Shown one piece after another: positions 2,971-23,195 of a stretch of 23,195 bases of DNA. The translations under genes were made by a program, and so were the position numbers. The notes beneath the pieces are model-generated. The model did no database searches. It was not told the origin of the DNA and worked only from the letters and a program-made list of their open reading frames with translations. Position 1 is the stretch's first letter. Every line of letters begins with the position of its first letter. Location: the IMG/VR virus record IMGVR_UViG_2778261179_000020; one strand, given 5' to 3'. The DNA comes from a virus. Its lineage: Duplodnaviria; Heunggongvirae; Uroviricota; Caudoviricetes.

Positions 2971-3414
2971 ATGAAATGTAAAACACTACCTCTGCTGGCG
3001 ATGGTTGCCACCACTCTGTTTCTGAGCGCCTGCGATGACAGGAGTGATGACCTGAAAGCTATCAGTAAATTTAAGGACCTCACGCCTCCGCGCTTCAGCG
3101 ATGTGGTCAGTCGGCAGGATGATGTCAGCGAAGAATGGTCACAGGTTGGCTTTTCATCAGGTCTCACCCTGCAGGTCTTACGTACCCGTGAGTCGCCCGA
3201 TGGCTGCGAGGGCGGTAGTTACTACTACCTCGTGGATATGCAAGAAAAAACCATCCAGCCGCTGATGAATGCGCTGTGTATTGCCGATAACATCAAACTG
3301 GAATACCAGGAGGTGACGGACCCGTATACCAAAGAAAAATACTTTGAGTACGCCCATGACGGCAAACTGATGGGGCAGCTACTGATACCCTCGAACCCTG
3401 ACAATCAGGAATAA
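2971..3414 (+). CDS. Lipoprotein (YafY/YfjS-like)
   Basis: 147 aa from ATG 2971; signal peptide with lipobox LSAC (MKCKTLPLLAMVATTLFLSACDD). The track ORF 2854..3414 has a non-native N-terminal extension. Confidence 0.7.
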   Translation: MKCKTLPLLAMVATTLFLSACDDRSDDLKAISKFKDLTPPRFSDVVSRQDDVSEEWSQVGFSSGLTLQVLRTRESPDGCEGGSYYYLVDMQEKTIQPLMNALCIADNIKLEYQEVTDPYTKEKYFEYAHDGKLMGQLLIPSNPDNQE

Positions 3415-6957: not shown

Positions 6958-7719
6958 TCACTGAATAGTCTCATTATCTTCAGGCTTAGTTATTTCATCT
7001 TCTAATTTATCCAACCACGTTATAGCACATTGATTCAAATCGATGATCAGATTTTCCACATACACAATTATTGAATTAAATTTCCTAGGGTTAACACTAC
7101 TTTTAAACTCCCCATGTCCCAAAGAATTTCTAAGGCCAACAACCTCACCTAGTTGCGATAAATCAAGTGATGAATAATCCAAACCTATAGCATCGAAATT
7201 CACCTTGACAACCATTTCATTCACATTGGAAAATGTCATAACTAATTCAGAAACATCGCAATCTGATAATGTGGATTTATTAAACCTGTCAATGTGTTGA
7301 ATTACCTCACTTGTTAGTTTAAACGCCCCCTTCGTAACTTTCTTTTTTATTTGGGCGCCATTATGGACAATGCTTCGGTGTGAGTCAGCATCATAAATAT
7401 TTTTTATCATATCTACATACTTGCTATAAAATGGTTCTCGTTGCAACCAAAGTGCTCGAATTTCTGCAGAGTATCTAAATGCCTCTCTATCTGAGAGTTT
7501 CAATGTATTTAAGCAAACTGACATTGTTTCAGTAAAAAAACCCTCCCAAGAAGAATAAATCATTGGGACCGATATTATTCTAAACATATCCTCCTTGTCT
7601 TTATCACCTGATCTCGACATAAACTCATTAATAGACTTTATGCTCTCAAGGAATCCAAGACTTTCATTTTTCGTCTTTTCCAACATCACCTTGAAATCAT
7701 CGAAATCTGATATTCTCAT
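6958..7719 (-). CDS. HEPN-domain protein (putative RNase), third gene of the MTase-DUF262-HEPN operon
   Basis: 253 aa from ATG at 7719 (the track start at 7743 is TTG); AAGGTG upstream; C-terminal Rx4H motif in GLRNSLGHGEF; start lies 1 nt after the DUF262 stop; AT-rich. Confidence 0.55.
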   Translation of the reverse strand: MRISDFDDFKVMLEKTKNESLGFLESIKSINEFMSRSGDKDKEDMFRIISVPMIYSSWEGFFTETMSVCLNTLKLSDREAFRYSAEIRALWLQREPFYSKYVDMIKNIYDADSHRSIVHNGAQIKKKVTKGAFKLTSEVIQHIDRFNKSTLSDCDVSELVMTFSNVNEMVVKVNFDAIGLDYSSLDLSQLGEVVGLRNSLGHGEFKSSVNPRKFNSIIVYVENLIIDLNQCAITWLDKLEDEITKPEDNETIQ

Positions 7720-7720
7720 T

Positions 7721-8833
7721 TTATCCAAACACCTTCTTCCCAAGAGCGATTCTTTTCTCTAATTTGGCTTTAGTATTAGATCCAGAACCAGTACAAGCTC
7801 TTAATTCTTTGATCTCACCATCCATTAAATAATCAAATCTTTTCGCCACCTCAGCAGGTGTTAAATTATCTACATTACTAAAAATACCAACAGCAACAAC
7901 ATCTAATAAATTAGTACTAAACGGGCCACTTGGAGCACCATCCTTTCTAAATTTAAATGCTTTACCAGATAAACCAGCAATATTTATCAAATCAAAAGTT
8001 CTTTTTATTTTTAATTCAAAATTAATATCAATAACATTATGTTCTGCCGCGTAGAACATAAATTCATCCAAAAAGTCAGTTACACTATGGCTAAATTTAT
8101 CCGCATAAGTCAAAGATGCCATAACTCGTAGCAAAGCTTCCTCAACACCTTGAGATTTTTGGCCATCTTCATTTATTCCAAGAGCTTGAACAATACCATC
8201 AATTTCGGCCATCTTACGTAAGCGATCTGCAAATTCATTCCCTGCTAATCTAGCCATGCAATTACGTATTTCCTGGTCACTCAAACGAACACCAGACCTA
8301 TTCAGTCGTTTAAAAACATTATATTTAGTTTCAGGTTTTGTTTCTTGCTCCAAAATAACAACATTTACTCGCGCATTTTTTATAGTTCGGCTAACTTTGT
8401 CCGGCAATCCTTTTGCAGTCCATCCATTTAATTCTGTAATTATAGGCACATCATCAAGAACAGTTGGATTACGGACATCATTTACAGAGTTTTGTTTCTT
8501 TGCATTATCTATTTCTTCCTTATTAAAAATATCCTCTGAAAAAAATCTAATTATAGTACTCACACGTTGCAATCCATCGATAACCTCCTGCTTACCATTA
8601 TTATCAATGTAGAAAAAAAGTGTTGGCGTAGGTATATTTAAAAGTAATGACTCGATAAATTGGCTTTGTCTTGCGTTATCCCAACGAAAAAGCCTTTGGT
8701 AGTCTGGAGAAATGGTTATCTCATTTTCTTTATATAGATTAATTACTTCACGCCATGATATGGTATAAGAATCAGTTACTACCTCATCTCTTTTTTCATC
8801 TATCTGAGATAGCAATTTAGTTACGTCATTCAT
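7721..8833 (-). CDS. DUF262 (ParB/Srx-like NTPase) domain protein
   Basis: 370-aa ORF; hallmark motifs DYQRLFRW and IDGLQR (DGQQR-like) in the N-terminal half; its ATG overlaps the MTase stop (ATGA). Confidence 0.75.
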   Translation of the reverse strand: MNDVTKLLSQIDEKRDEVVTDSYTISWREVINLYKENEITISPDYQRLFRWDNARQSQFIESLLLNIPTPTLFFYIDNNGKQEVIDGLQRVSTIIRFFSEDIFNKEEIDNAKKQNSVNDVRNPTVLDDVPIITELNGWTAKGLPDKVSRTIKNARVNVVILEQETKPETKYNVFKRLNRSGVRLSDQEIRNCMARLAGNEFADRLRKMAEIDGIVQALGINEDGQKSQGVEEALLRVMASLTYADKFSHSVTDFLDEFMFYAAEHNVIDINFELKIKRTFDLINIAGLSGKAFKFRKDGAPSGPFSTNLLDVVAVGIFSNVDNLTPAEVAKRFDYLMDGEIKELRACTGSGSNTKAKLEKRIALGKKVFG

Positions 8834-10056
8834 TTTGTTATCCTTATGATTTTTTCAAAATAAACTTTATCTTTAATATAATTTTTTGACTTGGTATTTA
8901 TTTGTCCAAATATTGCTTTAACTTGATCTTCTCTCACACATTTCGCTTCTGAAAACCCAATAGAAAGCGCCATTTCACAATAAATATCATAAAGCGGAAT
9001 CTCTATTTCCTTATAATATGAATTTTGTATTACAAAATAACCAGAGCAACCTACCTTTAAAACTCTAAAGATTTCCATTAATGACTCATACGCATCAGAA
9101 AAATATCTAATTTTATTTTTAAGGTAATAACTTCCAGATGCTCTTGATGTATGCGATGTTACCGATGACAAAACATCCATACACAATGGCCCCCATTTTT
9201 TATTAATTTCATCCGCAACTTTAGGCACAGTCGTCGTGCCCATCATTTCCTTTCTAAGAGACTTATATCCCTCACTCCCTAAAATTATTTCCAACTCAAG
9301 ACGAGTAGAAACGGCATAGTCTATTCGTGTTAAATACGGTGGCGATGTAATAACAAGATCAATTGTGTTACTTTTAATATTTAATTTTTTACTATCCACG
9401 TTTAAAATCGAGTAACATGCCCCCCCATTAGCGCTGCCATAATATTCACTTAACTGCTCACGCATAATTTTAAAATTTTTATTATATTCAAAACAAATAT
9501 CAAATTTATTATTAAAGTCTACTTTTTTAGAAATCCATGTAGGATTTGAAGTTGACCTAACATCAAGGACATTGCGAACAGTATAAAATAAAACACTGCA
9601 ATAAAATGCTTTTAAAGGATTTACGATATCATTTTGTCCTTTATCCATAAACTGATCACAGATACATTTATAAAACTTTTGTAACTGTTCAATAAGTGGA
9701 TAGCCCTTCGATGACTCAGTTATATCTTTTGTTTTTTTTCTAAAGCAAAGCAGTATCCTTTCCAGGAGTTGCTCTCCGGTATAATCCAGCGCTGAAATAT
9801 TATCCCTACTTTTGGCTGCAGCAAAATAGCTCATTACAGGATTAATATCTGCTCCAATACACTTTATGGTTTGCTTTTGACAAACTATACCAGTGGTACC
9901 GCTTCCCATCCAAGGATCAAGAACGGTAGCGGACGACTTAACTCCTTCAGCCTGCAAAACAGAAGCCACAAATGACTCTGAATAGCCCGCATAGTATGGA
10001 TGCCAAGAGTGAAGCCCCTTGCGTTCGTTTCTCCCTCTTTTCGCGCCTGCAATCAT
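8830..10056 (-). CDS. DNA amino-methyltransferase (N6-adenine or N4-cytosine)
   Basis: 408-aa ORF; AdoMet motif I DPWMGSGTT near the N-terminus and catalytic motif IV SPPY (LVITSPPYLTRIDY) mid-protein. Confidence 0.85.
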   Translation of the reverse strand: MIAGAKRGRNERKGLHSWHPYYAGYSESFVASVLQAEGVKSSATVLDPWMGSGTTGIVCQKQTIKCIGADINPVMSYFAAAKSRDNISALDYTGEQLLERILLCFRKKTKDITESSKGYPLIEQLQKFYKCICDQFMDKGQNDIVNPLKAFYCSVLFYTVRNVLDVRSTSNPTWISKKVDFNNKFDICFEYNKNFKIMREQLSEYYGSANGGACYSILNVDSKKLNIKSNTIDLVITSPPYLTRIDYAVSTRLELEIILGSEGYKSLRKEMMGTTTVPKVADEINKKWGPLCMDVLSSVTSHTSRASGSYYLKNKIRYFSDAYESLMEIFRVLKVGCSGYFVIQNSYYKEIEIPLYDIYCEMALSIGFSEAKCVREDQVKAIFGQINTKSKNYIKDKVYFEKIIRITK

Positions 10057-15081: not shown

Positions 15082-16887
15082 TTATGTTCTGTCGTTAATC
15101 CCTGTAGCTGCTGGCAACCAGCCATCAGCATCATCATCTAACAGAACATTTGTTATCACTCGCCCTTTATCCGGGCCTTTAGTGCATTTAGCCCGCTTAT
15201 ACTCCTTTCCGTATTCCGCCATAGCTCCTGGCATATCAGTACCAAAGCGTGTCAGTGATACTGGTTTTCCCAGGCCATGCGCTGACATATAGGCTAAATA
15301 AGCATGATACAGGTATCGCCTCGGGCTAAATGGCACTATTTCCGCATTGCCCACCATCATTCCTTCACATTTAACCAACGACATCAGATAGCCGCAAAAG
15401 TCCACCAGTGAATCACCTTCGCGCTTTATCAACAGCGCTTCTTCTGATTTTTGCTGCTCATAAAGTAGTCTTTTAGCTTCGTCCTGGTCGGTAAATCGTG
15501 TTAGCAAATGGCGAATCACTACCGCCAGTTCGCCTTCTATCTTTTCCGCCAGCATGGGATCGCGTTCGTTCTCCGGTACGACCTCAGAGAAATTAAATAT
15601 CACCCTACGACGCGAGATCCCCCCGCTTCGGTCACTGAATGACATGGCGTTATTGTTTACCGCAAGCACTACTGCCGGAATACGTGTGGAGTAGGGGGCT
15701 TTATGTTTCGGATCAATTGCCACCTTGTCGCCGCCAGTAATTGCCTTAATTCCTGCACCATCGCCAGCGTAGCGAGTCATATCCGGCATGATAATCAGCG
15801 AAAAGCCAACTACTAACGCGCGTTCCCTTGCGTCTTCCAGAGCCTTCATGCTTGCCGATACTGTGTTGGCCTTACCCGCCAGCATGGTACAAATCTCAGC
15901 CATCACACTTTTACCGCTTCCGCCTGGGCCTGTTACCTCAAGGAATAACTGCCAGTCGTACCGGTTCGCCAGTACCATGAATAATGCCGCCAGTACGCGA
16001 TCAGCTTTACGATCATTATCTGCCACCGAACGACGCAGCCACTTCCAGAAATTCGGCGCATGTGTTGCCAGCGTTTCCCCCTCTGCTGGTGGGCTGAACG
16101 GTAATTCACTGGCATTTAACAACCAGTCATTTTTGTTATGCTCCCGAAAATTTCCCGTCCGGGTATCAAATACCCCGTTACTGAATCCAATAAGATTCCT
16201 GTCTGCCCCGCCCATAACAGGCAGGCTCAATTTCATTGTGTCTACGGCAAATTTAATGGCGTTTTGCGAATAACTGATTCCAGCATCAATAAAAATCTTC
16301 GCCATAGACCGCTGGAGTTCCTTATCAGATACAGGCACCCAGACAATTCCGTTGTAATGGTGAACTACATCAGAATCATCATTTATAGCCAGTGCTCTTC
16401 CATAATATTCAAGTAACACTTCCCCTCTCTGGCTGGCTCCCATCTGATTTAGTGCTGGCCTGGATAGGTCAATATTTTTTGTGGCTAATTTCATCGCTGA
16501 AACTTCCCCACTCTCTGCCTGTTCGCGGATCCGTTGCAGGTAGTCGCGCCAGTTTTCCGGCTCCCGGTCGGTGATACCTTTGTATAATTTCGCGTCCTGT
16601 ACACCAGCCAGCGCCAGCTTTTCAGCAATAGCATTGATCTGGATTGGCTCTATCTCCCCCGCGAGATAGACACGCGCAAAGCGGCGTTCATCGTCGACAA
16701 TGCGGATATTCGCCAGGTCTGCCAGTTGCTTTGGCCCCAGGTAAACAGGAGGCACGTTATCGCCGTGTTTTCGTCCTTCGCTTTCAATCCAGTGTTGAGC
16801 ATGGGCGTAAGCATCCGTCCCGGCAAAAATGATTACCTCGGTGAATTTATCCTTCGGCTGATATTTTAAATTCGGTGCGTTTTTCAC
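15082..16887 (-). CDS. Primase/helicase-like replication initiator (P4-alpha / D5-type P-loop NTPase)
   Basis: 601-aa ORF; Walker A GPGGSGKS; GTG start with GGGAGGT upstream, overlapping the preceding gene's stop. Confidence 0.85.
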   Translation of the reverse strand: MKNAPNLKYQPKDKFTEVIIFAGTDAYAHAQHWIESEGRKHGDNVPPVYLGPKQLADLANIRIVDDERRFARVYLAGEIEPIQINAIAEKLALAGVQDAKLYKGITDREPENWRDYLQRIREQAESGEVSAMKLATKNIDLSRPALNQMGASQRGEVLLEYYGRALAINDDSDVVHHYNGIVWVPVSDKELQRSMAKIFIDAGISYSQNAIKFAVDTMKLSLPVMGGADRNLIGFSNGVFDTRTGNFREHNKNDWLLNASELPFSPPAEGETLATHAPNFWKWLRRSVADNDRKADRVLAALFMVLANRYDWQLFLEVTGPGGSGKSVMAEICTMLAGKANTVSASMKALEDARERALVVGFSLIIMPDMTRYAGDGAGIKAITGGDKVAIDPKHKAPYSTRIPAVVLAVNNNAMSFSDRSGGISRRRVIFNFSEVVPENERDPMLAEKIEGELAVVIRHLLTRFTDQDEAKRLLYEQQKSEEALLIKREGDSLVDFCGYLMSLVKCEGMMVGNAEIVPFSPRRYLYHAYLAYMSAHGLGKPVSLTRFGTDMPGAMAEYGKEYKRAKCTKGPDKGRVITNVLLDDDADGWLPAATGINDRT

Positions 16888-17963: not shown

Positions 17964-18180
17964 GGTGCACCTCCTGTACATCAGCCATGATAATTTTTCC
18001 GGCTTTATCCAGTGCCTGATCGGCTTTCAGCTGCACAAATGCTAAATAATGGGAGATGCATTCTGATTCTCTGGCTGCGTGTTTATGCGCCACACCAGCG
18101 ATAGCAGAAATCTCAATAAGTGAATCCATCAGCGTTTTGATAGCGTCTACCGCTGCATCAGGCCATGTTGCATTACACAT
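17956..18180 (-). CDS. Hypothetical protein (74 aa)
   Basis: ATG at 18180; 8-nt overlap with the upstream 122-aa gene. Confidence 0.4.
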   Translation of the reverse strand: MCNATWPDAAVDAIKTLMDSLIEISAIAGVAHKHAARESECISHYLAFVQLKADQALDKAGKIIMADVQEVHHA

Positions 18181-18538
18181 GCTCCACCTCCTGGCGAATA
18201 CGGGCAGCGAATACCATCACGCAGCCATCAGGAGATTGCTGGCGTGCTTCCTGTTCGCTGGTGGCCTCGATGTGAATCACGCGCGGTTGTGCCGTACTCA
18301 GGGCGATAAAACGCCAGATAAAATTGTTTTCGCATTTCTGAATAAACAGCGTGTTTTCTTCGCGCCCTTTCCATGTTGCCGAGATATAGCCCATGTCATT
18401 GAGCATCTCGCAGGCATCAACCAGCGTATCGGCGGCTACGTGTACAGTGTTTTTACCGTCAGCAATGCAATCACGGTGCACCGCCAGGAAGGTGTATATA
18501 AATTTAGGGTGAGTTTGGGTATGCTGTGTTCCAGCCAT
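18173..18538 (-). CDS. Hypothetical protein (122 aa), first gene of the leftward replication operon
   Basis: ATG at 18538 with GAGGT 8 nt upstream; it is the C-terminal part of the stop-free track ORF 18173..19759, which I reject as a single protein. Confidence 0.5.
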   Translation of the reverse strand: MAGTQHTQTHPKFIYTFLAVHRDCIADGKNTVHVAADTLVDACEMLNDMGYISATWKGREENTLFIQKCENNFIWRFIALSTAQPRVIHIEATSEQEARQQSPDGCVMVFAARIRQEVEHV

Positions 18539-18604
18539 AATCGTTACCTCGTTTAACGGTTTGGTTAGACGCCCTGCATGTGTGCCACCACTGCGGGGCG
18601 TTGC

Positions 18605-18637
18605 TGTATATACACCACAACAATTGGTGTATATACA
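18605..18637. promoter_or_regulatory. Operator-like perfect inverted repeat in a divergent control region
   Basis: TGTATATACACC (18605-18616) - 9 nt - GGTGTATATACA (18626-18637); further ACACC/GGTGT half-sites downstream to about 18710; lies between the leftward operon and the rightward small ORF. Confidence 0.45.
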
Positions 18638-18728
18638 AATTAAATTTAAGTGTGCTACAGTGTCAAGTGTTTTATCAACACACCTTTTGGTGTAATGTGT
18701 ACACACCTCAAAATAACCGGACATTCTG

Positions 18729-19034
18729 ATGGCAACAGGAAACATCAACAGCAGATCGCAAATGAAAAATATCCGCTTCCCCCATGATGTAATCGAGGAA
18801 ATGGAAAATTCGAAAACGGAAGGGGAAACAATAGCCGCTTTCGTGATTACAGCCGTTCGCGGTGAAATCGCCCGCCGCCAGGCAGAAGGAAGCGGAGAAA
18901 ATCCCCTGGTTTCTTCGCTCGATGCCCTAGCGCAGGTGGAAAAAATCGGAGTCAAAGCTGCCGAGGAAATCGGGCAACTCGTCACCGTCGCGCGTGAAGA
19001 ACTCCAGCGGCGCAAAGCTAAAGAGCAGGAATAA
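18729..19034 (+). CDS. Possible ribbon-helix-helix-type DNA-binding protein
   Basis: 101-aa ORF (alternative start MKNIRF at 18762); beta-strand then helix pattern KNIRFPHDVIEEME / ETIAAFVITAVRGEIARRQ; composition typical of a real protein, unlike the antisense frame; weak SD. Confidence 0.4.
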   Translation: MATGNINSRSQMKNIRFPHDVIEEMENSKTEGETIAAFVITAVRGEIARRQAEGSGENPLVSSLDALAQVEKIGVKAAEEIGQLVTVAREELQRRKAKEQE

Positions 19035-19091
19035 CCACTATAGGTGCCGTGGTGTGAGGAACTACGGTGCATTATTTTACAGGGCAGCGCC

Positions 19092-19292
19092 ATGACCAAC
19101 AAAGAATCAACCAATACACCATCACCGGCACGGAAAAGACAGCGCAGAAAGATAGCGTACGAGCATGAGTCAGACAGATTCGCGCCCTGTGCGTTTGTCC
19201 TTGAGAAATTCCTTAAAGAGTACAGGCGCACAAAAATGGGGTCGCATACCTGGAAAACATCGCGGCATGGCAATGTTAAAGAGCAGGAATAG
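19092..19292 (+). CDS. Possible small basic protein (66 aa)
   Basis: Internal ATG of track ORF 19044..19292; basic; ends KEQE* like the preceding ORF; weak SD. Confidence 0.25.
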   Translation: MTNKESTNTPSPARKRQRRKIAYEHESDRFAPCAFVLEKFLKEYRRTKMGSHTWKTSRHGNVKEQE

Positions 19293-19368
19293 CCCACCAG
19301 CAAGCCAGCATATTCACCATAATGACCCTCAGTTAAACATAGAGTCATTGGTGCAAAGCTGACACATT

Positions 19369-19759
19369 GCCCACCAGCCGCAAATCTGGCATTGTTGGCG
19401 ATGCGTTCAAGTATGTAGCTTTCCCACTGGCGGCCCTCTGCGGTCGCCTTTGTTTTATCCAGAACGAAATCAGACATCAGATTGATCAGCACCTGGCGAC
19501 CTGACAAAATCGCATCAGTCGCGCCACCAGCAAAATTTTTTGCTTTCCGGACAGTGTGACCAACGACATTTTGCAGCAAAATATTCTGCATTTCTGGCGT
19601 GCTGTAGTAACGGTGATCAGCGCCTTCACTCTGTGCGACCACAACGCTATAATCTGCCTCGTAGACAGTAAGCAATATGGCGCAGTAGGCTATTCGTTCA
19701 CAAAGGCGCTCCGGCAACGGGGCGCTTTCTCTTTTTGTAACGGTCAGAGCGTTACACAT
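19369..19759 (-). CDS. Possible CDS downstream of the AntA-like gene; 3' end undefined (approximate)
   Basis: ATG at 19759 overlaps the AntA-like stop; the first ~130 codons look protein-like, but the frame has no stop until 18173 and the middle translation is Cys/Ser-rich. Confidence 0.25.
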
Positions 19760-20552: not shown

Positions 20553-20629
20553 AAAAACTCCTGCTATCGAATTAAGTTACTTTTATTTGCTGGTGGATAG
20601 CTGGGGGCAATAGCCCCGTAGCCATTTAA

Positions 20630-20827
20630 TCAGGTAGCTGTTCCGCGTGATTCCGCAATACGCTGATTAATCCACTCGTCAATTTCACTCTCAACGAAAG
20701 CAATAGCTCGCGAGCCAATTTTAACTGATGCAGGAAATTTACCTTGCCCCATAAGGCGATAAATCCATGCCTTGCTATATCCAGTTCTACGCTGAACTTC
20801 TGTTAAACGAATAAGCGTATTTGACAT
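20630..20827 (-). CDS. alpA: AlpA-family phage transcriptional regulator / excisionase-like
   Basis: 65-aa ORF; hallmark AlpA sequence LIRLTEVQRRTGYSKAWIYRLMGQGKFPASVKIGSRAIAFVESEIDEW; GAGGT SD. Confidence 0.85.
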   Translation of the reverse strand: MSNTLIRLTEVQRRTGYSKAWIYRLMGQGKFPASVKIGSRAIAFVESEIDEWINQRIAESRGTAT

Positions 20828-20896
20828 ATATTTACCTCATAACGTCTACTCAATTTGACGAGGTAATCATGGCACAGAAATAACGAATATTTTCAT

Positions 20897-21039
20897 ACCC
20901 TCAGGCCTAATGGTTACCGGAAGGAAATCTACCCTAAGGGTGATGGTAATCGGGAGGAAATCTACCCTAAGGGTGATGGTAAAATTGACGGGGAAGATAA
21001 AAAAATACCCTCAGGGTAACAGTAAATCACCCTCAGGGT
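20897..21039. promoter_or_regulatory. Operator array upstream of alpA: four full 11-bp palindromes ACCCTNAGGGT plus a half-site
   Basis: ACCCTAAGGGT at 20931-20941 and 20964-20974 (inside a 33-bp tandem duplication, 20917-20949 and 20950-20982); ACCCTCAGGGT at 21007-21017 and 21029-21039; partial ACCCTCAGG at 20897-20905. Confidence 0.5.
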
Positions 21040-21054
21040 ATGCGGTATGGTGCG

Positions 21055-21852
21055 TTAATCCGGCTTTGCGTTCTTTTGGCTGTTGTCTCGGTTAATAGGG
21101 CAGGCAGTCCTCTCTATGAGCGTTGCAAGTGCATTACTTGCCCCCCACTGCTTAAGCTCCCTGGTTATCGCTTCTTGATTTCCCCTGGTGGCAAAATCAT
21201 TTTCTGGATCGTAATTGGCCCACTCTCTGTTTCTAATCTCAATAGCCTTAGCTAATGGGTCTTTATCCCAGTATTTATATAAGTGTATCGGGCGCTCTTG
21301 CTCTAACTGCTCTATCCTTGCCCTTAACTCTGCGTTTTCTTTTTCCAGCATTGCGATTTGGGATAATAAATCATCCTCTGTACGCAACTCTTTCTTTTCA
21401 ATATCGCGTCCTTGTGCCTCGTCATTTTCAGAAGAGTTAGCGCCTTCCAGCTTCGTTAACGCGTCAAGGACATCGGGAAAAATTGCGAAAATTTCACCCC
21501 TTATAAATCCAATGTTCTCAAATTCGGGATCTTCCCAATAACCGGACACCAGAAAACCATTTTCATCCCTCTCACCAGGTAAACAACCACGTTTCCGAAC
21601 CGCATTCAGATTTCTATAAAGAACATCATTATCAAATTCATCCCGATACGGGTTACAAAAAGATTCCAACAGCTTAAATTCATTTACTGTGTACAGGCGG
21701 ATATGTTCTCCGCTTATTCTCCTGAGTATCCAAGTTATGACATCTGAAACATCATAATCATCACCAGCGACCTTAAGCACGACCTCAAGAAATTCACGTA
21801 AAGAAATAAAATCTTTTTTGTATTCGTTTAATTCGGCATGAATATCAATCAT
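21055..21852 (-). CDS. Hypothetical acidic coiled-coil protein (265 aa) between integrase and alpA
   Basis: ATG at 21852 with GAGGTG upstream (the track start at 21858 is GTG); coiled-coil segment LLSQIAMLEKENAELRARIEQLEQE; lower GC than neighbours; no recognisable catalytic motif. Confidence 0.55.
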   Translation of the reverse strand: MIDIHAELNEYKKDFISLREFLEVVLKVAGDDYDVSDVITWILRRISGEHIRLYTVNEFKLLESFCNPYRDEFDNDVLYRNLNAVRKRGCLPGERDENGFLVSGYWEDPEFENIGFIRGEIFAIFPDVLDALTKLEGANSSENDEAQGRDIEKKELRTEDDLLSQIAMLEKENAELRARIEQLEQERPIHLYKYWDKDPLAKAIEIRNREWANYDPENDFATRGNQEAITRELKQWGASNALATLIERTACPINRDNSQKNAKPD

Positions 21853-21980
21853 ACGCACACCTCAGCGTCCTCTACTGTAGTGGCTGTACCAGTCCGTCGA
21901 GGTGTACGGATTTTCGGGAGCGACCCTAGACACAGCCTTTTCTTTCGTCGCTCAAAGTCTACTACTGTATACTCAACCAG

Positions 21981-23195
21981 TCACCCGCATTTTCCGAACT
22001 CACCATGCACCACATTTCCGCCATGCTCGAGCGAATCCATATAATCAGCGTACCACTGAAGCATTTCCCGCCGCCCATCCAGATATTGCGCATGGTTGTA
22101 TGTGCCACGAATTGAGTTTTTATCGACGTGCGCAAGCTGTGTCTCTATCCACGCGGTGTTATAGCCCTGCTCATGCAAAATGGTGCTCATAGTGTGCCGG
22201 AAGCCATGACCAGTAACCTTTCCGTTATAGCCGATGCGTTTAAATACTTGGTTTATGCTAGCCTCGCTCATTGTTTTCCTTGGATCATTACGGCCGGGAA
22301 ACATAAGCGGATAATTGCCAGTTAGTTCTTTAATCTGCCCAATAAGCGAAAGAGCCTGCTCAGACAAAGGCACTACATGAGGGCGACGCATTTTCATCCG
22401 TGAAGCAGGTATCTCCCAGATAGCCTTGTTGAGATCGATTTCATCCCATAATGCACCGCGCAGTTCGCCAGTCCGCAAACCGGTGATAATCAGTAAACGA
22501 GCCGCCATAACAACCAATGCACTTCCTGAGTAACTGGACAATGCCTTGAAAAAATCAGGTAATTCTTTGGCTGTGAGGAAAGGATAATGATTAGATTCAT
22601 GACCTTGCATCGCGCTGGTGAGATCCGGTGCAGGGTTATACTCAGCACGTCCAGTGACAATTGCATAGCGGAAAACTTCCCCACATCGCTGCCTCACTTT
22701 TTTGGCTTTTTCGGTAGCACCGCGCCCCTCGATGCGCCGCAGCACATTCAGCAGTTCAAGTGGTTTGATTTCGGCGATTGGTTTTTTGCCAATGTAAGGG
22801 AACACATCTTTGTTGAAGGCTTCGAGGATGTCTGAAGCATAACCAGCAGACCATTTTTTTAATTTGCTGCTGTGCCACTCAAGGGCAATATCTTTGAAGG
22901 TGTTGTTTAACTGCGTTTCCCGGGCAATCTTTTCCTCTCGTTTCGCTTCCATCGGATCGATACCCCCAGCGATACCCCTTTTAGCTTCTTCACGTTTTGC
23001 ACGAGCATCAGCCAAGGTAACTTCAGGATACACACCTAGTGCTAACAGCTTCTCTTTACCAGCTACACGATACTTGAAGCGCCAATATTTTCCTCCACTA
23101 GGTTTTACCAAGAGATACAGACCACCACCATCAGCCAGCTTGTAAGCCTTCTCTTTTGGCTTGGCAGTGTCTATTTGACGGGCATTGAGTTTCAC
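21981..23195 (-). CDS. int: Tyrosine recombinase / phage integrase (P4-family-like); 5' end at or just beyond the window edge
   Basis: 404 codons; N-terminus ..KLNARQIDTAKPKEKAYKLADGGGLYLLVKPSGGKYWRFKYR typical of P4-type integrases; catalytic HGFRHT and Tyr-containing RGTYNHAQY near the C-terminus; first codon in the window is GTG. Confidence 0.9.
   Translation of the reverse strand: MKLNARQIDTAKPKEKAYKLADGGGLYLLVKPSGGKYWRFKYRVAGKEKLLALGVYPEVTLADARAKREEAKRGIAGGIDPMEAKREEKIARETQLNNTFKDIALEWHSSKLKKWSAGYASDILEAFNKDVFPYIGKKPIAEIKPLELLNVLRRIEGRGATEKAKKVRQRCGEVFRYAIVTGRAEYNPAPDLTSAMQGHESNHYPFLTAKELPDFFKALSSYSGSALVVMAARLLIITGLRTGELRGALWDEIDLNKAIWEIPASRMKMRRPHVVPLSEQALSLIGQIKELTGNYPLMFPGRNDPRKTMSEASINQVFKRIGYNGKVTGHGFRHTMSTILHEQGYNTAWIETQLAHVDKNSIRGTYNHAQYLDGRREMLQWYADYMDSLEHGGNVVHGEFGKCG

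Follow-up and report, generated by a model that had tools for sequence, protein, structure and literature searches.

The stretch of DNA examined here, 23,195 bp in length and referred to below as the window, carries a compact module in which an integrase gene (int), a gene that we designate X and the small gene alpA share one orientation, all on the minus strand. A structured RNA motif separates int from X, and an array of palindromic sites separates X from alpA. Apart from that array, the module consists of the following features:

21981–23195, minus strand: tyrosine integrase gene int (Pfam Phage_integrase, Arm-DNA-bind_3 and Phage_int_M), the left end of the module
21869–21936, minus strand: int-alpA RNA motif (Rfam RF02996), 45.5 bits against a gathering score of 35.8
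21055–21858, minus strand: gene X, a 267-aa ORF, candidate cognate regulator of the palindrome array
20630–20827, minus strand: alpA, 65 aa, the putative regulated gene (Pfam Phage_AlpA, 2.4e-19)

RefSeq gives the product of X as 265 aa, with its ATG start at 21852, and the intergenic region between X and alpA measures 227 bp in the window. Downstream of alpA lie an AntA-like gene, small phage-type ORFs, a primase gene, genes for ProQ/FinO and PerC proteins, and defence-type cargo. The X-alpA region is present in 164 of 5,426 complete E. coli genomes and is chromosomal every time.

The int-alpA RNA is part of the conserved module and occupies the same position, between int and X, in nine related loci. 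In the window it ends within the ribosome-binding site of X, and in ten of ten loci (the window, L015, L026, L028, L041, L073, L075, L096, L097 and L100) it precedes an X-type gene and never alpA itself; it is absent from the island EcCIMP1 and from L098, L099 and L053. It may thus belong to X as a 5′ leader rather than being associated with alpA. Neither a promoter nor a terminator was predicted in the interval between int and X, and X may therefore be expressed together with int in the resting island.

The intergenic array consists of four exact copies of the 11-bp palindrome ACCCTNAGGGT, two of which fall within a tandem duplication:

20931–20941, unstranded: palindrome site 1, ACCCTAAGGGT, exact match; within the first copy of the 33-bp unit, its centre 109 bp upstream of the ATG of alpA
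20964–20974, unstranded: palindrome site 2, ACCCTAAGGGT, exact match; the duplicated site, in copy 2 of the 33-bp unit
21007–21017, unstranded: palindrome site 3, ACCCTCAGGGT, exact match; followed on the minus strand by T7 and scored terminator-like
21029–21039, unstranded: palindrome site 4, ACCCTCAGGGT, exact match; 15 bp downstream of the X stop codon
20910–20982, unstranded: 33-bp tandem duplication (Tandem Repeats Finder: period 33, 2.2 copies, 92% matches)

An initial annotation of this DNA had reported four full palindromes upstream of alpA, and these are real: four exact matches were observed against a composition-adjusted expectation of 0.019. When one mismatch was allowed, the same four sites were still the only matches in the 23,195 bp, while shuffled sequences contained a mean of 0.5 and none of 100 shuffles reached four. 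Allowing two mismatches added only ACCCTCAGGcc at 20897–20907 and one unrelated match at 3166. In the window, the remaining island operons expected to be activated by AlpA have no ACCCTNAGGGT site upstream.

The duplication, which had been described as almost perfect, is indeed identical at 31 of 33 positions in its best registers (starting at 20916–20918), and each copy of the unit holds one palindrome. Across E. coli strains the X-alpA intergenic region measures 194, 227, 260 or 293 bp, and the four alleles that were read contain exactly one (L004), two (the window), three (L002) or four (L003) copies of the 33-bp unit between otherwise identical flanks, site 2 being the one missing from L004. 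The three-copy and four-copy alleles carry different unit variants (TCTGG in L002 versus TCGGG in L003), so that the unit must have expanded more than once. In diverged relatives the layout is that of a single copy and the sites fall about 114, 157 and 179 bp from alpA, which indicates that one copy is ancestral and that the two copies of the window are derived. The proposal that the duplication reflects recent amplification of a putative binding site is thus supported by a range of one to four copies among otherwise near-identical E. coli islands and by the single copy in diverged ones. As read from the sequence, the unit lies between stretches of ATGGT(T/A)A microhomology, an arrangement that would fit either slippage or unequal exchange.

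Three routes led to related loci: a scan of IMG/VR for the site pattern, a scan with a degenerate codon pattern for the C-terminus of X, where its conserved domain (the C-domain) lies, and protein homology. The codon-pattern scan was independent of the sites and covered IMG/VR and one genome per species. In islands whose alpA is 74–100% and whose X is 29–100% identical to those of the window, the spacers can no longer be aligned and the palindromes are nonetheless kept, at about 113, 157, 179 and 211 bp from alpA in diverged islands. The equivalent of site 1, at about 113–114 bp, is retained in nearly all diverged relatives, and the 22–23 bp spacing of sites 3 and 4 is kept as well. The initial annotation had proposed a comparison across related islands, and in 47 distinct intergenic regions from Enterobacterales and Burkholderiales the palindromes keep their positions. 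Of the 106 spacings between neighbours in these regions, 101 come to within 1 bp of 22, 33, 44 or 55 (observed classes 21–23, 32–34, 42–44 and 54–55 bp), counts that are not independent since the sequences are related. Spacings in multiples of about 11 bp place the sites on one face of the helix. The conserved motif is (T)ACCCT-N-AGGGT(A), with a free central base; its variants are one-sided and break the pairing, with no compensatory changes, and relatives lack the T-run that follows site 3. This conservation at the level of sequence, together with the one-sided variants, the helical phasing and the unconserved T-run, speaks more for a protein that recognises double-stranded DNA than for RNA hairpins or terminators. 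The pattern of conservation argues that the palindromes are functional and under selection. Of the readings considered, a dimeric regulator acting on alpA, as had first been suggested, appears the best supported, given that palindromes are kept while spacers diverge, that phasing is close to 11 bp and that the array ends beside an extended −10-like element.

The motif has a wide distribution. Loci of the Enterobacterales that encode the C-domain (in Raoultella, Klebsiella, Kluyvera, Cedecea, Xenorhabdus, Sodalis and Atlantibacter) carry ACCCTNAGGGT arrays; L075 and L077 carry dyads of the form ACCGTGAGGGT-N10-ACCCTCACGGT, and Pasteurellaceae loci carry dyads of the form AGGGTGATAG-N10-CTATCACCCT. 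Relatives of a protein from Herbaspirillum frisingense led to four further loci (L053, L094, L096 and L097) that keep ACCCTNAGGGT arrays, and in loci of this type AlpA is 37% identical to that of the window and X is 26% identical outside its C-terminal motif. Three of these betaproteobacterial loci also have a hairpin-forming repeat, cctaACCTTGC ... GCAAGGTtagg, between the array and the next start codon (L053:6340-6410, L094:3880-3930 and L097:2690-2745).

A scan for sigma-70 consensus promoters across 20600–21200 found no −35/−10 pair, and features of the promoter region were instead drawn from an alignment of 21 diverged alpA upstream regions:

20866–20874, minus strand: predicted extended −10 of the alpA promoter, TGcCATGAT; the pattern TGnNATNAT is conserved in the 21 diverged sequences, with no −35 consensus
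20898–20913, unstranded: promoter-proximal 16-bp dyad CCCTCAGGCCTAATGG, from the same alignment
20834–20864, minus strand: conserved inverted repeat, consensus CTCGTAA-N13-TTACGAGG, which includes the alpA Shine-Dalgarno sequence

The TGnNATNAT element lies about 40 bp from the alpA ATG with the array upstream of it; the promoter is predicted rather than mapped. Just upstream of where its −35 would fall is the 16-bp dyad, and this alters how one of the original observations should be read. A palindrome half-site had been noted at 20897–20907, and the sequence is there, although it does not belong to the array: it is the promoter-side half of the separate dyad CCCTCAGGCCTAATGG, which has a conservation pattern of its own. 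Among islands the half-sites of this dyad are either CCATTAGG or CCCTCATG, and the window has a hybrid with one of each, the half-site noted earlier being the second. Three forms of the dyad thus occur among relatives, namely CCATTAGGCCTAATGG, CCCTCATGCCTGAGGG and the hybrid of the window. Its CCATT/AATGG half resembles the repeats of an alternative cassette found in L098 (see below), a likeness that hints at recombination of regulatory cassettes inside an operator. The inverted repeat nearer to alpA, which overlaps the predicted transcription start, could be an RNA hairpin that sequesters the Shine-Dalgarno sequence or a DNA operator; RNAalifold pairs ten positions, and the changes are one-sided (wobble) only. 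The dyad of the Pasteurellaceae loci reaches with its right arm into a perfect extended −10, TGCTATAAT, an arrangement that has the geometry of a repressor site.

The protein encoded by X has no match in Pfam, PHROGs or NCBIfam, and these searches revealed neither a helix-turn-helix (HTH) nor a ribbon-helix-helix (RHH) domain; the other X-type proteins likewise gave nothing in the three collections. A sequence-profile comparison with the PDB found no relative (best E 0.09), and tblastn against 50,697 deposited phage genomes found no match. A profile search among 1.84 billion sequences returned 95 cluster representatives, most of which share only the last ~95 residues with X, and some only the N-domain. 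The AlphaFold (AF2) model comprises an N-domain (residues 1–143), a disordered acidic linker, a long helix (161–188) and a small helical C-domain. Of these parts the N-domain is hypervariable and swapped among homologues, residues 161–188 form a coiled coil, and the C-domain of ~75 aa (about 186–257) is conserved. Modelled alone from 33 sequences, the C-domain forms four helices with a pLDDT of 88, and structure comparison with the PDB and BFVD gave no significant neighbour for this model or for the full one. The predicted architecture of a variable domain, a coiled coil and a small conserved domain would suit a dimer that reads a dyad; the acidic character of X (pI 4.7) counts against DNA binding, for which the case is one of genomic association. 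The family is rare and unannotated and appears to be undescribed, and a full-text search of the open-access literature found no description of the sites or of X.

That association is close. A search of IMG/VR with the site pattern alone yielded 63 loci, 36 of which have an X homologue, alpA or both beside the sites, and wherever both flanks are present the sites always lie between X and alpA; the remaining 27, which are long hairpins of no relation to the array, repeats in coding sequence or other tandem repeats, were discarded. The C-domain codon pattern, for its part, recovered 23 new IMG/VR loci, and 18 of its 21 genome matches encode the C-domain, the other three being chance or off-frame. 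All of the C-domain loci found in this manner have dyads of ACCCT/AGGGT-type half-sites right after the X stop codon, and an alpA-like gene comes next wherever enough downstream sequence was read, with Pfam confirming Phage_AlpA proteins of two divergent types. Proteins with unrelated N-domains and a shared C-domain have the same motif alongside, so that specificity would reside in the C-domain if X is the binder.

Natural exchanges within the module separate X from its neighbours. L098, from APEC E123, has an AlpA identical at 63 of 65 residues (97%) with an identical HTH and the same integrase type, together with a different gene, X′, whose C-terminus is a distant relative of the C-domain of X (hhalign 77%, E 1.9e-5); upstream of its alpA lie three AATGG-N6-CCATT-type repeats and no ACCCTNAGGGT. 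A third type of X is found in L100 and L125, the latter with an integrase 99% identical to that of the window, and here the sites are two perfect ACCGCAATTGCGGT palindromes. Apart from two unrelated loci, a search for pairs of ACCGCAATTGCGGT yielded nothing but near-identical versions of the L100 module, and hence no independent footprint. The experimentally studied PICI EcCIMP1 has an AlpA that is 81% identical, with a near-identical HTH and recognition region; its int and alpA are not separated by a gene, and ACCCTNAGGGT occurs nowhere in 21.5 kb. Conversely, the Herbaspirillum-type prophage loci L053 and L094 have an X homologue followed at once by the array and no adjacent AlpA-like ORF, the nearest being 2.9 kb away. 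Because the motif co-varies with X, and not with AlpA, the integrase or AntA, X is the best candidate for the regulator. The initial annotation had looked to AlpA, the PerC-like and RHH-like proteins and helper proteins; motif co-variation points instead to the gene that it had listed as encoding an unknown acidic protein. These natural swaps are few, and in each the whole regulatory cassette was exchanged together with X.

The exchanged genes form a pattern that may be recorded in its own right. Near-identical alpA genes are preceded by alternative int-alpA genes, each with its own repeat set (L098:2716-2970, L100:2715-2828, L099:2719-2816 and L007:18858-19284), the repeats of such cassettes being AATGG-N6-CCATT in three copies, ACCGCAATTGCGGT in two and TATTTAATTTAAA in two. 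EcCIMP1, which is without such a gene, has ACCGCAATATG..CATATTGTGGT upstream of alpA. From their sequences, the alternative genes and repeats look like interchangeable regulator-plus-operator cassettes.

The gene alpA is the master switch of this E. coli phage-satellite island; in Gram-negative PICIs it is AlpA that activates the cycle (PMC6092414). Helper phages have been known since 2018 to switch alpA on; they do so through an unidentified factor, even without AlpA, and neither a repressor of Gram-negative PICIs nor the cis-element of induction has been identified (PMC6092414; PMC11773190). We propose, with a probability of roughly one half, that the palindromes constitute an operator array at which dimers of X would hold alpA off until a helper signal arrives. 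The four palindromes would be helically phased sites that adjoin the alpA promoter on its upstream side and bind a dimeric regulator encoded by the island, most likely X itself, whose gene ends 15 bp from the distal site. X would dimerise through its coiled coil and read (T)ACCCT half-sites with its C-domain, while the hypervariable N-domain would serve as the input domain. Bound cooperatively along one face of the DNA, X would keep the self-activating alpA silent while the island is at rest; a product of the helper phage would then act on the N-domain and release it, and AlpA would amplify its own expression and start the island cycle. Gain or loss of a 33-bp unit would add or remove one site and so tune the switch, with phasing left intact since 33 bp corresponds to three helical turns. 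We infer binding by X, the direction of the regulation and the helper input from the arrangement described above; the geometry of the Pasteurellaceae dyad and the literature on alpA induction make a helper-released repressor the most likely role for X. More tentatively, and at odds somewhat against, X may be the founder of a family of dimeric DNA-binding regulators with a new C-terminal fold, and a helper-sensing master regulator of widespread Gram-negative satellites in Enterobacterales, Pasteurellaceae and Burkholderiales. The succession of int, int-alpA RNA, X, array and alpA would then form an immunity-like switch in which swappable N-domains set the inducing helper and the 33-bp VNTR tunes the threshold.

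The main alternative retains X as the binder and reverses its sign: a helper-sensing activator that, after a helper signal had reached its N-domain, would recruit RNA polymerase from the phased sites to the −35-less alpA promoter. The region has several properties that one would expect of such an arrangement, namely an extended −10-like element with no −35 consensus, an array wholly upstream of the predicted −35, and a proximal dyad that would be centred near −45, the classical activator position; moreover, the unrelated phage contig L069 has the same palindrome 9–12 bp upstream of TTGACA at many promoters. We nevertheless consider an activator unlikely, given that the Pasteurellaceae dyad overlaps the −10 in a manner that fits repression, and that an auto-activating master gene requires a tight off state. 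Since X may be expressed with int in the resting island, a plain activator would switch alpA on constitutively. It is distinctly unlikely that the palindromes are bound by a protein encoded elsewhere, whether a helper-phage transcription factor or a conserved host factor, with X as a linked passenger or co-factor. Such a binder would accord with the induction of alpA promoters in trans by helper phages (in EcCIMP1 partly without AlpA), with the want of a recognisable DNA-binding fold in X, and with the association of TACCCTNAGGGTA with promoters in one large metagenomic phage. It would leave unexplained the loss of the motif where X is replaced or absent and AlpA, integrase type and host species are unchanged, as well as the occurrence of the same motif with X homologues from Enterobacterales to Burkholderiales, whose phages differ. 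In IMG/VR, too, paired sites lie only beside X, unrelated hairpins and L069 apart, the window has no further site, and the deposited phage genomes searched above yielded no X homologue.

There is a slim chance that the palindromes are autoregulatory sites of AlpA itself. An AlpA-family gene does lie downstream of nearly every array, and the AlpA of EcCICFT073 activates PalpA (PMC6092414). The sites are nonetheless missing both from L098, where AlpA and its HTH are as good as unchanged, and from EcCIMP1; L053 and L094 keep the array with no alpA adjoining it, and the other operons that AlpA should activate have no site upstream. Xis/AlpA-type winged helices, in addition, typically bind direct repeats as monomers. 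A slimmer chance attaches to a role as RNA or termination elements, in which the palindromes would act as small GC hairpins in transcripts that read through from X or, in a DNA variant of the same idea, a bound protein would act as a transcription roadblock. Sites 3 and 4 were scored terminator-like on the minus strand and T7 follows site 3, no other terminator separates X from alpA, and long read-through is plausible with no promoter predicted between int and X. The stems are only 4–5 bp each, however, and the single T-run is unconserved, so that an intrinsic terminator was rejected; the variants are one-sided and never compensatory, and a spacing so strictly in steps of 11 bp is characteristic of double-stranded DNA and not of RNA. 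In an Rfam E-value scan of the region no family was matched, and the best hit, RAGATH-25, was treated as chance at 16 bits against a gathering score of 49.

Three other identities were set aside. Arm-type attP or excisionase sites would be expected to track the integrase and to lie within a few hundred bp of the att core, whereas the palindromes lie more than 2 kb from the int-proximal end of the island; islands with the same integrase type and another X lack the sites (L098, L100 and L125), and islands whose integrases are 66–67% identical keep them. Replication-origin iterons, which would be direct repeats beside an initiator or primase gene, do not fit: the primase gene is 4 kb away at 15082–16887, and the sites are palindromes that in every relative belong to the region upstream of alpA. 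Nor are the palindromes the int-alpA RNA (RF02996), the covariance match lying at 21869–21936 and not at 20897–21039; that motif shares the int-to-alpA interval and the set of mobile elements, but it is a structured RNA candidate between int and X, about 830 bp from the palindromes, which themselves match no Rfam family.

Among characterised systems the closest functional analogue would be Stl and its operators in staphylococcal islands. Stl of the SaPIs is an island-encoded regulator whose gene lies beside int and controls the genes that start the cycle, as is proposed for X, and both proteins are modular, with a conserved DNA-contact part (putative in X), a highly variable part and many allelic specificities. 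The variable part of Stl binds helper-phage proteins and derepression follows; X would sense helpers in an equivalent way. X is not, however, a member of the Stl-like regulators, since it differs in the recognisable DNA-binding domain, the direction of transcription and the order of domains: Stl has an N-terminal HTH and is divergent from its target, whereas X has no detectable HTH, bears its conserved domain, of orphan fold, at the C-terminus, and is co-directional with int and alpA. X would also control an activator, which adds a layer of positive feedback. Arrays of the lambda OR/OL type and of similar immunity regions, to which repressors bind cooperatively, offer a further parallel in their multiple dyad sites, their phased spacing next to or overlapping a promoter, and their many immunity specificities swapped as repressor-plus-operator cassettes. 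The present sites differ from those of lambda in being short (5-N-5, with half-site centres 6 bp apart), in reaching some 130 bp upstream of the promoter and in varying in number through a 33-bp VNTR, and X is not an HTH protein of the CI type.

The AlpA-dependent induction of EcCICFT073 and EcCIMP1 concerns the same element type and the same target gene. There the alpA promoter is the entry point for helper induction and AlpA activates its own expression; those studies defined neither cis-sites nor a repressor (PMC6092414; PMC11773190). EcCIMP1 departs from the window in having neither gene X nor ACCCTNAGGGT, and in EcCICFT073, to judge from the ORF numbering, alpA apparently follows directly after int; a search for that island in two 45-kb stretches of CFT073 returned only the icd prophage and chromosome. 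The AlpA of P. aeruginosa, a Q-like antiterminator of larger size, binds GGGACG between −35 and −10 (PMC9371919); the shared name is a coincidence, and neither that protein nor its element is related to the 65-aa Phage_AlpA protein or to the motif described here.

The locus accordingly offers a conserved cis-element and a specific candidate protein for the coupling of helper phages to alpA. What would be new is an operator array with a cognate candidate regulator controlling the master switch of a satellite, together with a protein family that appears not to have been described. Should X prove to be the binder, satellites would provide a new DNA-binding domain and regulatory specificities that behave as cassettes. 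The natural variation from one to four copies supplies an allelic series with which the number of sites can be related to the induction threshold. Such satellites carry defence and virulence cargo, represented here by GmrSD-like, HEPN and PerC genes.

Some further observations concern the motif outside the islands and the remainder of the window. L069 is a 127-kb metagenomic phage contig from IMG/VR, in which (T)ACCCTNAGGGT(A), the same palindrome as in the islands, occurs 21 times in 14 kb (L069, 1-8100); most of these copies are intergenic and lie 9–12 bp upstream of TTGACA on the coding strand. The contig has no relative among deposited phages, and the 14 kb examined contain no X homologue. 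C4 and isrK immunity RNAs were not detected in the window and are present in several related islands. The island cargo resembles a defence cluster at 6958–10056 of the window, on the minus strand:

8830–10056, minus strand: DNA methylase domain protein
7721–8833, minus strand: GmrSD_N-domain protein
6958–7743, minus strand: RiboL-PSP HEPN protein

Positions 1–2695 encode on the plus strand, opposite to the island core, a GTPase-like P-loop protein (1–864), a DUF932 protein (941–1777) and a WYL/HTH regulator (1994–2695), and possibly represent a second element or extra cargo. At 18173–19759, on the minus strand, the window has one 528-aa ORF whose C-terminus matches Icd-like or repressor PHROGs, and in the otherwise near-identical island of strain F9792 (L001:17853-18693) a short Icd-like gene and divergent YlcI/YnfO-family genes replace it; the island is mosaic at this point.
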